Below are positions 42,326 to 45,300 of a stretch of 64,000 nt of DNA, piece by piece. The position numbers were made by a program. Source of the DNA: Candidatus Binatia bacterium (lineage in GTDB: Bacteria > Desulfobacterota > Binatia > UBA12015); contig DATCMB010000004.1 in the NCBI GenBank assembly GCA_036563615.1, forward strand, positions 407,293-471,292, read 5' to 3'. Positions within the stretch are counted from its first letter, which is position 1; each line of letters starts with the position of its first letter.

Positions 42326-45300
42326 CTCGACCTGACGCGCGCCGCCGCGCACCGCGGCGAGCGAGTTCGCGACCGCCATGCCGAGGTCGTTGTGACAGTG
42401 CGTGCTCCAGGTCACGCGGTCCGCGCCCGGCACCTTGCTGCGCAGGTACTCGAACAGCTCCTTGAGCTGCTCGGGGATCGCGTAGCCGGTCGTGTCGGGG
42501 ACGTTGCACACCGTCGCGCCCATGCGGATCGCCTCGGTGAAGACCTCCACCAGGTAGTCCGGGTCGCTGCGCGACGCGTCCTCGGCCGAGAACTCGACGT
42601 GGTCGACGTGCTTCTTCGCGAGATCGACCGCCCAGCCCGCGGCCTCGAGCACCTGCTGCCGGCTCATCATGAGCTTGTGCTTCAGGTGGATGTCCGAGGT
42701 GGCGATGAAGACGTGGATGCCGGGGTGCTTGGCCTTCTCGACCGCGCGCACCGCGCGCAGGATGTCGGCTTCCTTGGTGCGCGCGAGGCTCAGCACCACG
42801 GGCGTCGAAACGGCCGCGGCCACCGCCTGCACGGCCGCGAAGTCGCCCTCGCTCGAGGCGGCGAAGCCCGCCTCGATGACGTCGACCCCGAGCTCTTCGA
42901 GCTGGCGGGCGATCGCCAGCTTCTCCTCGACGTTCATCGTCGCGCCCGGCGATTGCTCGCCGTCGCGCAGCGTCGTGTCGAAGATCCGAACTACGTCTGT
43001 ACCGGGTTGCTCCATGTTCGACCCTTTCCCGCCGCGGTAGCTCGAATTGCCCGGGAGCTCACCCACCCCGCCGCTCGACCTCTAGAGACAAAAACGCCAC
43101 GGGGCCAACTGTGAGCGCCCGTGGCGAAATCGGCGGAGCGGCGTGCTTCCCTCTTTGCGGGAAACAGCTATCCGGCCAGCGCCAGGGGCGCGCATCTAAG
43201 GGAGAGTCCCGCGAGTGCGGACCCCAGACCGGCCTGGCACCGTGCCGTGCTCATCACTCTTCGCTTAGAAGTGCGTGAGCGGCGTGTCAAGGTGACGCGC
43301 CGCGTGCTGCTTGCCGCTCCAAGGGGATCTTGGTATCGCAACTAACGCGTATTTCGGCCGTGCGGGGCAGATCGTCGGCAACCCAGTCGGCCCCTCCCGA
43401 GCCTCGGGACCGCGACGGGTGCCGCTCAGACCAACCTTCGCCACGAGGAGCGAGAATGATCGAGCGATGGACAAGAGGCGTACGTCGGACGACCGTGCTT
43501 GTCGCCGCTGCAGCTCTGCTGACGCCGGCAATCGCCACGGCACAGGGAAAGATCACGGGTAAGGTCAAGTTCGAGGGCACGCCGCCTGCGCCGGCGAAGC
43601 TCAAGATGGACGCCGATCCCGTGTGCGCGCAGGCCCACCCGGACGGCGCCGTCTCCGAGGACATCGTCGTCGGCGAGGGTGGCGGTCTGCAGAACGTGTT
43701 CGTGTACCTCAAGGAAGTGCCGGGCGACTTCCCCGCGAAGACCGAGCCGGCCGTGATCGATCAGAAGGGCTGCCTCTACACGCCGCGCGTCATCGGCCTG
43801 CAGACCGGCCAGCCGCTCAAGTTCCTCAACAGCGACCCGACGCTGCACAACGTGCACGGCATGCCGAAGAACAACCCGGGCTGGAACTTCGCCATGCCGA
43901 AGTTCGTCAAGCAGAAGGAAACCAAGGACCTGACCAAGCCCGAGGTCATGGTCGCCGTCAAGTGCGACGTCCACCCGTGGATGGCGGGCTACATCGGCGT
44001 CCTGCCGCACCCCTTCTTCGCGGTCACCGGCAACGACGGCAGCTTCACGATCGAGAACGTCCCGCCGGGCGAGTACGAGATCATCGCCTGGCAGGAGAAG
44101 CTCGGCACGCAGAGCGGAAAGGTGAAGGTCGACGCGGGCGGCACCGCCACCAGCGACTTCACCTTCAAGGCGTCCTGACGACCCGAGACGTTCTACACCC
44201 GAGCTGAACCCGTGCAGGCCGCGTTGTTCTGGCTGACCGGGGGCGCGTTCTTCGCGCTCCAGCTCGGGATGTTGCTGTACCTTCTCTACGCGAGGCCCGC
44301 GGCGGGCCTCGCCTCCGGCGACGGACGCCGGCACCGCGACGAGATCGTCTGGACGCTGGTGCCGGCGTCGCTCGTCGTCGCCATTGCGCTGATGGTGACG
44401 GGGCTGACGGCCGCGCCGTGGTCGCGCGTCCGCACCGCGAGCGCTCCGGACATGGCGGTCGAGGCCAAGCTGCACGGGATCCAGCTCGTGCACCGCGCCG
44501 CATCGAGGTAGTTGCGATGCAGCGAAGCATGGCCCTGGCCACGCCGACGTCCCGCTTCTCCGACTACGTGGAGCTGGCGAAGCCGCGCATCACGCTGATG
44601 GTGGTCCTCACCACGGCGGCCGGCTTCTACCTCGGCGCGCGACCGTCGGTCGACTTCCTCGCCCTGCTGCACACGCTGCTCGGCACGAGCCTGGTCGCGT
44701 CGGCGGCGAGCGCGCTCAACCAGGTCCTCGAGCGCGACACCGACGCGCGGATGGAGCGCACCCGCACCCGTCCCATTCCGGCGGGTCGCATCGAGCCCGG
44801 CACCGCGCTCGGCTTCGGCATCGCGCTCGCGATCATCGGTGGCGTGTACCTGGCGGCCGCGGTGAACGTGCTCACCGCGACCGTCGGCATCGTCACGCTG
44901 CTGCTGTACGTGCTCGTCTACACGCCGCTCAAGCGCTACTCGTCGCTGTGCACGATCGTCGGCGCGGTGCCCGGCGCCCTGCCCCCGGTCATGGGCTGGA
45001 CGGCGGCGACCGGCGTGCTGAGCGCCGAGGCCTGGGTGCTGTTCGGGATCCTGTTCTTCTGGCAGCTGCCGCACTTCCTCGCGATCGCCTGGAACCACCG
45101 CGAGGACTACGCGCGCGGCGACCAGCCGATGCTGCCGGTCGCGGATCCGAGCGGCGCGAGCACCGCGCGGCAGATCGTCCTCTACTGCATGGCGCTGATC
45201 CCGGTCAGCCTCGCGCCCACGATCATGCACCTCACTGGCGAGCTCTACTTCTACGGCGCGCTGCTGCTCGGCGTCGCGTACCTGCTCGCGGGCATCCACG

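Follow-up and report, generated by a model that had tools for sequence, protein, structure and literature searches.

In chlorophycean algae, apicomplexans and scoliid wasps, mitochondrial subunit II of cytochrome c oxidase is split into two polypeptides, COX2A and COX2B (PMC5374615, PMC9895450). Auracyanin, a membrane-associated blue copper protein of Chloroflexus and Roseiflexus, takes electrons from alternative complex III (ACIII) (PMC8552683), and AcoP of Acidithiobacillus ferrooxidans is described as a single-domain cupredoxin associating with the oxidase (PMC4059628, PMC10804444). Here, we compare with these systems a pair of genes at 43456-44511 on the + strand of a 64,000-nt stretch of contig DATCMB010000004.1 from Candidatus Binatia bacterium; this whole stretch is called the window. 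The first gene encodes a predicted blue copper protein (the cupredoxin), and the second a 99-aa protein (the hairpin) which lacks a CuA domain and, judging from profile comparisons, shares ancestry with the membrane domain of oxidase subunit II (CoxII). The pair is an unusual, lineage-restricted variant of known respiratory gene clusters. The account we favour, with a probability of about 0.5 for the whole, is that the cupredoxin would act as an electron donor and the hairpin would be a retained CoxII stub with an assembly role. The features of the pair are listed below, with the ratio of non-synonymous to synonymous substitution rates (dN/dS) calculated by the Nei-Gojobori method over eight loci; TM1 and TM2 denote the two transmembrane helices and ORF an open reading frame.

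43456-44178 (+): cupredoxin, 240-aa periplasmic blue copper protein (predicted signal peptide 1-29; type-1 domain ~99-185; transthyretin-like/CarboxypepD_reg domain formed by strand 31-40 and residues 186-240); dN/dS 0.32
43846-43857 (+): HNVH motif with H131 as the N-terminal copper ligand by amicyanin alignment; H131 and N132 invariant
43963-43983 (+): ligand loop C170-D-V-H173-P-W-M176, C-x2-H-x2-M with amicyanin spacing; nearly invariant
44212-44511 (+): stand-alone CoxII-type transmembrane hairpin, 99 aa, GTG start (family profiles, PDB matches, dN/dS)
44221-44292 (+): hairpin TM1, ~residues 4-27; dN/dS 0.26
hairpin residues 28-43 (+): basic cytoplasmic loop; dN/dS 0.59
44341-44409 (+): hairpin TM2, residues 44-66, with E44-I-V-W-T-L-V-P-A; dN/dS 0.41
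44428-44511 (+): hairpin C-terminal tail, residues 73-99, unconstrained; dN/dS 1.03

As in split COX2, a free polypeptide carries the subunit II transmembrane hairpin. However, the COX2 halves are complementary and replace an absent intact cox2, whereas the window has an intact coxII and no CuA half, and the partner of its hairpin is a mononuclear type-1 cupredoxin of separate origin rather than a CuA protein. In the ba3 oxidase of Thermus thermophilus, a tiny separate membrane polypeptide, subunit IIa, lies at the position of a subunit II helix. It differs from the Binatia hairpin in being a single helix that compensates for a one-helix CoxII, with no detectable homology to the hairpin, while the Binatia CoxII has both helices. 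In the rus operon, the gene for AcoP stands directly before the oxidase genes and upstream of coxB. AcoP is held by a transmembrane anchor of its own and has a green copper site; it has no CoxII-derived hairpin partner and was absent from the fold matches of the window cupredoxin. Auracyanin genes lie outside cox/cta operons; auracyanin A is a lipoprotein, like some members of the cupredoxin family. Together with the cytochrome c domain of caa3 oxidases, auracyanin acting with ACIII is the nearest analogue of the cupredoxin; ACIII and complex IV have been reported in Binatota (PMC8262859).

The first gene encodes an amicyanin-like type-1 copper protein with predicted copper binding. Its KCDVHPWMAGY and LHNVHG peptides correspond to residues 169-179 and 130-135. 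Across 36 diverse homologues, H131 was invariant and C170, H173 and M176 nearly so, and the pattern H-N-[VI]-x ... C-x2-H-x-W-M was present in all 109 family ORFs from 103 fetched loci. A profile search against the PDB placed HNVH on PHNVHF of amicyanin and C-D-V-H-P-W-M on C-T-P-H-P-F-M (E 0.001), so that H131 aligns with amicyanin His53. The AlphaFold2 model (predicted local distance difference test score 87) has two domains; one has the fold of amicyanin, plastocyanin and pseudoazurin and the other that of a transthyretin-like domain, and the cupredoxin domain is inserted behind the first strand of the transthyretin-like sandwich. The protein thus combines a Greek-key cupredoxin fold and a His...Cys-x(n)-His-x(m)-Met ligand set with a CarboxypepD_reg/transthyretin-like domain (PF13620) supported by both fold and gathering threshold. 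This C-terminal domain was the only one recognised by Pfam (35.3 bits against a cut-off of 32.3); Copper-bind (PF00127) gave no match at E ≤ 1, and the pseudoazurin model TIGR02375 scored 12.5 bits against a cut-off of 109.85.

The N-terminus has a basic N-region, a hydrophobic core and a cleavage-like site A-T-A|Q, and residues 1-26 were of low confidence in the model; on inspection, the protein looks like one exported to the periplasm through a cleavable signal peptide. Two further invariant cysteines, C57 (43624-43626) and C106 (43771-43773), lie outside the type-1 site within the family motifs DADPxC and QxGC; they might be joined in a disulfide or bind a second metal. Compared with amicyanin, plastocyanin and pseudoazurin, the fold and the ligands (HNVH ... 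C-x2-H-P-[FW]-M, amicyanin spacing) are shared, whereas the lack of a Copper-bind match, the setting within CarboxypepD_reg and the two extra cysteines are not. The window protein also differs from amicyanin and plastocyanin in being linked to cox/bc genes rather than to methylamine dehydrogenase or photosystems.

The cupredoxin family comprises 7101 clusters at 90% identity, with at least 593 matches in one-genome-per-species contigs. It is found in Acidobacteriota, Planctomycetota, Omnitrophota, Bacteroidota, Marinimicrobia, Gemmatimonadota, Verrucomicrobiota, Latescibacterota, Bdellovibrionota and Binatia. Synteny was counted over the best 80 loci, one per species and from many phyla, with flanks of up to 10 kb. 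The cupredoxin was flanked by cox, cta or SCO genes in 66 of the 80 loci. The gene directly downstream was ctaA in 18/80, coxI in 18/80 and coxII in 10/80 loci, and a divergent coxI was found in 6/80. In about 20 loci, the cupredoxin directly followed an operon for Rieske protein, cytochrome b and multihaem cytochrome c on the same strand, and this arrangement is a complex III-cupredoxin-complex IV super-operon. The upstream operon, in which cytochrome b is split and the multihaem cytochrome c has ~900-1100 aa, ended immediately before the cupredoxin (about 4000-10000) in L007, L015, L016, L022, L023, L031, L035, L037, L038, L046, L048, L061 and L072-L074.

In addition to this linkage, the family is found joined to CoxII itself. 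The cupredoxin was in frame with a complete CoxII in L011, L016 and L032, and N-terminal cupredoxin::CoxII fusions made up at least 66 protein clusters (P0229-P0294) of 460-640 aa, all with COX2_TM and COX2 and nearly all with CarboxypepD_reg as well. Databases label these proteins plainly as 'cytochrome c oxidase subunit II'. Fusion at this end makes topological sense, since CoxII has its N-terminus in the periplasm. In P0301, the cupredoxin module is instead fused at the C-terminus of CoxII, the position held by cytochrome c in caa3 oxidases. The fusions, also present in L139 and L140, come from Omnitrophota, Planctomycetota and others, usually with a second, free cupredoxin copy just upstream. 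A free cupredoxin followed by CoxII is the usual gene order elsewhere, and those CoxII keep their own CuA domains. By analogy with caa3 subunit II, joining of the module to a complete CoxII would imply a built-in or dedicated donor to CuA. Differences from caa3 are that the donor would be a type-1 copper domain set in a transthyretin-like domain and not haem c, that most of the fusions are N-terminal, and that the window cupredoxin is separate and secreted. The haem c motif CxxCH was absent from 50/50 CoxII ORFs in cupredoxin loci; for a complementary distribution of the cupredoxin and CoxII-fused cytochrome c, the comparison set was too small (2/13) to decide.

The cox-linked synteny, the CoxII fusions and the lack of a haem c motif in neighbouring CoxII together make a strong guilt-by-association and Rosetta-stone case, and we consider it likely that the cupredoxin donates electrons to CuA of the aa3 oxidase. 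No description of the cupredoxin family, the CoxII fusions, the hairpin or the pair was found in open-access text. The first-pass annotation of the window had given the coordinates, strand and quoted peptides of both ORFs exactly, and its type-1 rather than CuA assignment of the first gene is borne out by ligand conservation and the amicyanin alignment, the support coming from that profile and not from Copper-bind. Its proposal of a cupredoxin electron donor fits the first gene, given the fusions and the cox/bc synteny, and the co-occurrence of the pair with ctaB-SCO in every relative examined disposes of the thought that the cupredoxin might be a housekeeping paralogue unlinked to cox loci. 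The idea of a single subunit II whose halves are encoded separately and in inverted order fails, as the cupredoxin belongs to an independent amicyanin-like family which occurs beside or fused to complete CoxII.

The 99-aa hairpin protein is identical to NCBI hypothetical protein VIS07_01975 and has no database annotation beyond a COG label. It has two transmembrane helices, a basic cytoplasmic loop and the motif E-[IV]-x-W-T-x-x-P at the start of TM2, residues 43-60 being DEIVWTLVPASLVVAIAL. As a single sequence, it reached 16.6 bits with Pfam COX2_TM (PF02790; cut-off 22.8, E 0.009), below the gathering threshold and over residues 44-61 only, and an NCBIfam scan gave no match; homology was therefore tested with family profiles. 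Alignment with hhalign to the N-termini of cupredoxin-adjacent CoxII gave a probability of 98.8% (E 9.6e-17, 72 columns), covering TM1, the loop, TM2 and the tryptophan just past TM2. A word-indexed search found 52 close relatives, nearly all of 95-115 aa. A profile search of 1.8 billion representatives returned 17 short clusters (73-114 aa) at E < 1e-10 and longer proteins at E 4e-8 to 1e-3. Ten of the longer matches (E 4e-8 to 3e-4) were scanned with Pfam; nine had COX2_TM above the cut-off, and six also had the periplasmic COX2 domain. All 25 PDB matches were oxidase subunit 2, the best being that of P. denitrificans, in which E78(II), the K-pathway entrance, aligns with hairpin E44. These profile results argue for homology between the protein and the CoxII membrane domain.

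No CuA domain follows the hairpin: there was no PF00116 match, and the ORF stops 33 residues past TM2. A complete CoxB (TIGR02866) was rejected on the lack of an H ... C-x-E-x-C-G-x2-H-x2-M domain after TM2. A recent duplicate of the window coxII was likewise rejected, given that its product has no BLASTP similarity to the hairpin and that the family hidden Markov model (HMM) misses that CoxII type. A small ORF in L055 was not a significant homologue (hhalign 3.6%). Small two-TM ORFs in L008 (7485-7661) and L010 (10736-10957), both from Binatia-like metagenome-assembled genomes, gave 87% with hhalign and are probably divergent hairpin homologues; they carry SQLAWTLSP, with Gln in place of the hairpin Glu, and stand between a divergent cupredoxin paralogue and an atypical CtaA (…GINPPRWYEIDNVRTEHGHR…).

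The hairpin HMM matched the N-termini of CoxII that follow a cupredoxin in L024, L032, L033, L039, L040 and L058, where the operon order is cupredoxin-coxII-coxI-ctaA-ctaB-..., and did not match the CoxII type of the window. The cupredoxin-adjacent CoxII share a TM1 glutamine/glutamate and the motif LE[IV]IWT.[IV]PA. The order cupredoxin-(cupredoxin::)coxII-coxI-ctaA-ctaB-ABC-ABC2 of L139 is the predicted parent arrangement. Removing the CuA coding region and coxI from it gives the order of L100 and L102, cupredoxin-hairpin-ctaA-ctaB, and further loss of ctaA gives the window order. A single deletion is favoured as the most economical origin of these orders, and we hold with good confidence that the hairpin is the remainder of a subunit II gene after one deletion of the CuA domain together with coxI.

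Several other candidates for the origin were discarded. The hairpin is not a remnant of ctaA: the genes in the corresponding gap in other phyla are clear COX15 and unrelated to it, and L100, L102, L008 and L010 carry hairpin and ctaA side by side. P0299, an apparent natural cupredoxin+hairpin fusion without CuA, was a scaffold-gap artefact in which CuA continues past the gap, and P0298 is a partial record. The source of the P0299 artefact is the ENA scaffold of L139 (7072-7330), where a 10-N gap and AT-rich sequence of foreign appearance make the cupredoxin::CoxII gene look split.

Genome and metagenome scans found the stand-alone hairpin in ~30 loci, with an ORF of 73-115 aa and including 17 clusters at ≤50% identity. 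Where the contig spans both sides, it always lies between the cupredoxin and ctaA/ctaB, and SCO and a convergent cox operon usually follow downstream. The hairpin helices are under purifying selection like the neighbouring genes (dN/dS 0.27 for CtaB and 0.37 for SCO), while the tail drifts neutrally. F6, W7, F13, Q17, E44, W47, T48, V50, P51, A52 and L60 were invariant even in members with as little as 36% identity to the window protein, and W70 and R72, just outside TM2, were conserved. The start codon is kept at the same aligned position or within 3 codons of it, and a 76-aa member lacks the tail and keeps the helices. The stub is therefore a maintained gene and not a dead relic.

The hairpin gene has no Shine-Dalgarno sequence of its own, and its last codon and stop (AGG TAG) carry the ctaB ribosome-binding site GAGG, with the ctaB ATG 5 nt further on. 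The (C/G)GAGG-TAG ending was conserved in ten loci of the window clade, with the ctaB start 3-10 nt away. This accounts for the 'conserved' arginine at the C-terminus and suggests that the tail, although neutral, is kept as a spacer for coupling to ctaB. Such tight coupling to the following gene was not seen for the hairpins of L100 and L102.

For the second gene, the first-pass description of a CoxB-type transmembrane hairpin without a CuA domain is upheld by the family profiles and PDB matches, with the qualification that the single-sequence HMM test fell short and the profiles were decisive. Its suggestion of a remnant of a second oxidase suits the origin of the hairpin and is wrong as a pure remnant, because the helices are under purifying selection. 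The expected synteny was also found, the pair being kept with ctaA/ctaB in the ~30 loci.

The surrounding genes, ctaB, an ABC pair, SCO and a convergent coxII-I-III-IV operon, were as the first pass had named them:

44517-45407 (+): ctaB, haem O synthase (TIGR01473 E 2e-84, above cut-off; PF01040)
45515-46366 (+): DrrA-like ABC transporter ATPase, start codon uncertain (PF00005; TIGR01188 E 6e-84, below cut-off; gene call)
46379-47182 (+): DrrB-like ABC-2 permease (PF01061; TIGR01247 E 5e-55)
47179-47856 (+): SCO1/SenC copper chaperone, start overlapping the permease stop by 4 nt (PF02630 E 2e-29)
47884-48144 (-): 86-aa CxxC and single-TM protein, last in the convergent cox operon (ORF; homologues in other phyla)
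48144-48563 (-): coxIV, caa3-type subunit IV family (PF03626, TIGR02229)
48580-49161 (-): coxIII (PF00510; NCBIfam subunit III models)
49207-50982 (-): coxI, A-type, HPEVY motif (PF00115; TIGR02891 E 8e-179)
51042-51851 (-): coxII, intact, with two TM helices of its own and CuA site CAQLCGLGHTKM, without a cytochrome c domain (PF00116, TIGR02866)

Independent gene calling on the source contig agreed with the + strand order and with the lengths of both ORFs. The + strand set is a cytochrome-oxidase accessory operon; the spacers between its genes (33, 5, ~107, 12 and -4 nt) are consistent with an operon. The oxidase genes converge on it from the opposite strand, running from 51851 down to 47884. 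A promoter/terminator scan of the locus found no promoter-like sites, and its sole terminator signal was a weak terminator-like hairpin 64 nt past SCO; an Rfam scan gave no match near the locus. No second coxI was present within the 64-kb window, and ctaA/COX15 (haem A synthase) was undetected by tblastn anywhere in it, although the oxidase is of the aa3 type and many other lineages have ctaA between the cupredoxin and ctaB, so ctaA is either encoded elsewhere in the genome or absent.

The cassette of ctaB, DrrA-like ATPase, DrrB-like permease and SCO (44517-47856) was found beside cox genes in at least 7 phyla (L007, L012, L018, L026, L035-L037, L046, L051, L061, L071, L082 and L139); haem, a farnesylated intermediate and copper are substrate candidates for its exporter. 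The 86-aa ORF, which matched no model in Pfam or NCBIfam, combines a CAVCFGG motif with a single TM helix after it. In loci from Vicinamibacterales, Bacteroidota and Omnitrophota, small ORFs of this kind (ACPMCFGA, ACPACYGA, FCAACFGD; motif AC[PA]xC[FY]G) are placed either after the cupredoxin or between coxIV and coxII. The protein may be a subunit or assembly factor of the oxidase that has yet to be described. Elsewhere in the window, a bacterial class A RNase P RNA (4557-4927, -) and two tRNA genes (6794-6867, -, and 14130-14202, +) are unrelated to the pair.

In the account we favour, the cupredoxin would carry electrons from the complex that oxidises quinol, which is ACIII in Binatia and a Rieske/cytochrome b complex elsewhere, to CuA of the opposite-strand aa3 oxidase, which has no fused cytochrome c. 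One deletion would have stripped the CuA domain and coxI from a cupredoxin-coxII-coxI-ctaA-ctaB-ABC operon and left the stub as the hairpin. In real oxidases, the residues E-x-x-W-T-x-x-P-A of subunit II are in packing contact with subunit I and mark where the K channel begins. The stub would have been retained as a protein of two helices with these residues, translated in tight coupling with ctaB, and would serve as a small intramembrane partner of subunit I and/or the haem-a synthases. Because its conserved residues cluster inside the membrane, a membrane protein is the expected partner rather than the soluble cupredoxin. Subunit I is suggested by the subunit II signature that the hairpin has kept, and CtaB or CtaA by its position and translational coupling. 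With an intact CoxII present, the hairpin cannot hold the CoxII site permanently, which favours a transient, assembly-stage role, in which the hairpin would sit at the subunit II helix site of immature subunit I during insertion of haem a and CuB. Such a placeholder role on subunit I and the haem-a machinery is put forward tentatively, at somewhat less than even odds.

Several points weigh against this account. The deletion can be neither dated nor proved, and the parent arrangement was seen in no Binatia genome. The homology statistics of short hydrophobic segments may be inflated by composition, and the periplasmic N-segment of CoxII (LPxxxS...ID) is missing from the hairpin. The cupredoxin adjoins the assembly genes ctaA/ctaB/SCO as often as structural genes. 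The complete CoxII of the window excludes a stable hairpin at the same subunit I site in the mature enzyme, and the placeholder idea is only one way round this conflict. TM1 is the most conserved part of the hairpin, yet it is peripheral and poorly conserved in ordinary CoxII, which hints at a partner other than subunit I, and the tight coupling to ctaB could instead reflect a CtaB-related role.

The same observations bear on other explanations. The cupredoxin might be a copper carrier or chaperone working with SCO in CuA/CuB assembly, making the pair a pure assembly module. It heads a ctaA-ctaB-(ABC)-SCO assembly cluster instead of structural genes in 18/80 loci, cupredoxin-like folds act as copper chaperones in PCuAC and in CupA, the latter among the fold matches, and the invariant C57 and C106 could form a second site. 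However, ligand set and loop are those of a canonical electron-transfer type-1 site with amicyanin spacing; the PCuAC chaperone motif H(M)x10Mx21HxM (PMC9145763) was absent from the 240-aa protein on inspection, the ligands being His/Cys/His/Met; and CoxII fusion at either terminus and the last place in Rieske/cytochrome b operons fit a redox partner better. We therefore consider a chaperone rather unlikely, and the periplasmic copper carrier of the first pass less likely than an electron carrier. A docking role, with the hairpin holding the soluble cupredoxin beside the oxidase as a non-covalent version of the Omnitrophota and Planctomycetota fusions, would suit the position of the hairpin immediately downstream of the cupredoxin in every locus, the conservation of W70 and R72 beyond TM2, and the occurrence of the same cupredoxin elsewhere as a lipoprotein or covalently joined to CoxII TM1. 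The conserved residues, though, are nearly all intramembrane (only ~3 N-terminal and ~8 post-TM2 residues are both periplasmic and constrained, and the remaining tail is neutral), the cupredoxin has what looks like a standard cleavable AxA signal peptide, and the two genes are not consistently in frame with each other. Tethering through the hairpin, also raised in the first pass, is thus unlikely, a little more so than the chaperone.

Relic status accounts for some features of the 99-aa ORF, in that a decaying sequence without protein function could stay open merely as a leader ORF for translational coupling of ctaB: the neutral tail ends exactly on the ctaB Shine-Dalgarno, the hairpin lacks one of its own, and its database annotation is a COG label at most. 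This is improbable in view of a helix dN/dS as low as that of CtaB and the cupredoxin, eleven invariant residues down to 36% identity, including two polar intramembrane ones, the kept start codon position, the 76-aa member with helices and no tail, and the uncoupled hairpins of L100 and L102. That hairpin and cupredoxin form an alternative, CuA-free subunit II, with the stub providing the helices and K-channel glutamate and blue copper reducing haem a directly, draws on the retained subunit I contact/K-entry motif including E44, on the co-encoded redox cupredoxin, and on the ba3 precedent of a free helix standing in for a CoxII helix. But the family coexists with complete CoxII in the window and everywhere else, no covalent or obvious non-covalent cupredoxin-hairpin link was found, and a second coxI is missing from the window, so we rate it very improbable; if true, it would be a second, differently wired form of the same Binatia oxidase. 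A single gene broken by a frameshift, read-through stop or assembly error would explain why the two ORFs share a frame in the window (44176-44214) and in its close relative L004, one TGA and 11 sense codons apart. The frame is shared in only 7/24 loci, about the 1-in-3 level of chance, with spacers of 33 to 184 nt; the identical sequence occurs on 23 contigs from independent samples; and the one apparent cupredoxin+hairpin protein without CuA (P0299) was the artefact described above. The frameshift idea is thereby refuted and a broken gene has a negligible chance of being correct; the shared frame is probably coincidence and not programmed read-through.

If the favoured account of donor and stub holds, the 99-aa protein would be a clean natural case in which a domain stub outlived a gene deletion and was retained as a micro-protein. 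Keeping the subunit I contact and K-channel residues, it could be used to probe the handling of subunit I ahead of the arrival of subunit II, which is, to our knowledge, poorly understood in bacteria. The wider value lies mostly in the cupredoxin family and less in the Binatia-specific stub. This large, unnamed family of thousands of clusters, carried in databases as 'carboxypeptidase regulatory-like' or 'plastocyanin', now has a testable role: it is probably the dedicated blue-copper electron entry of A-type oxidases in those lineages where CoxII has no cytochrome c. If this is true, respiratory-chain reconstructions of many uncultured phyla miss a carrier.

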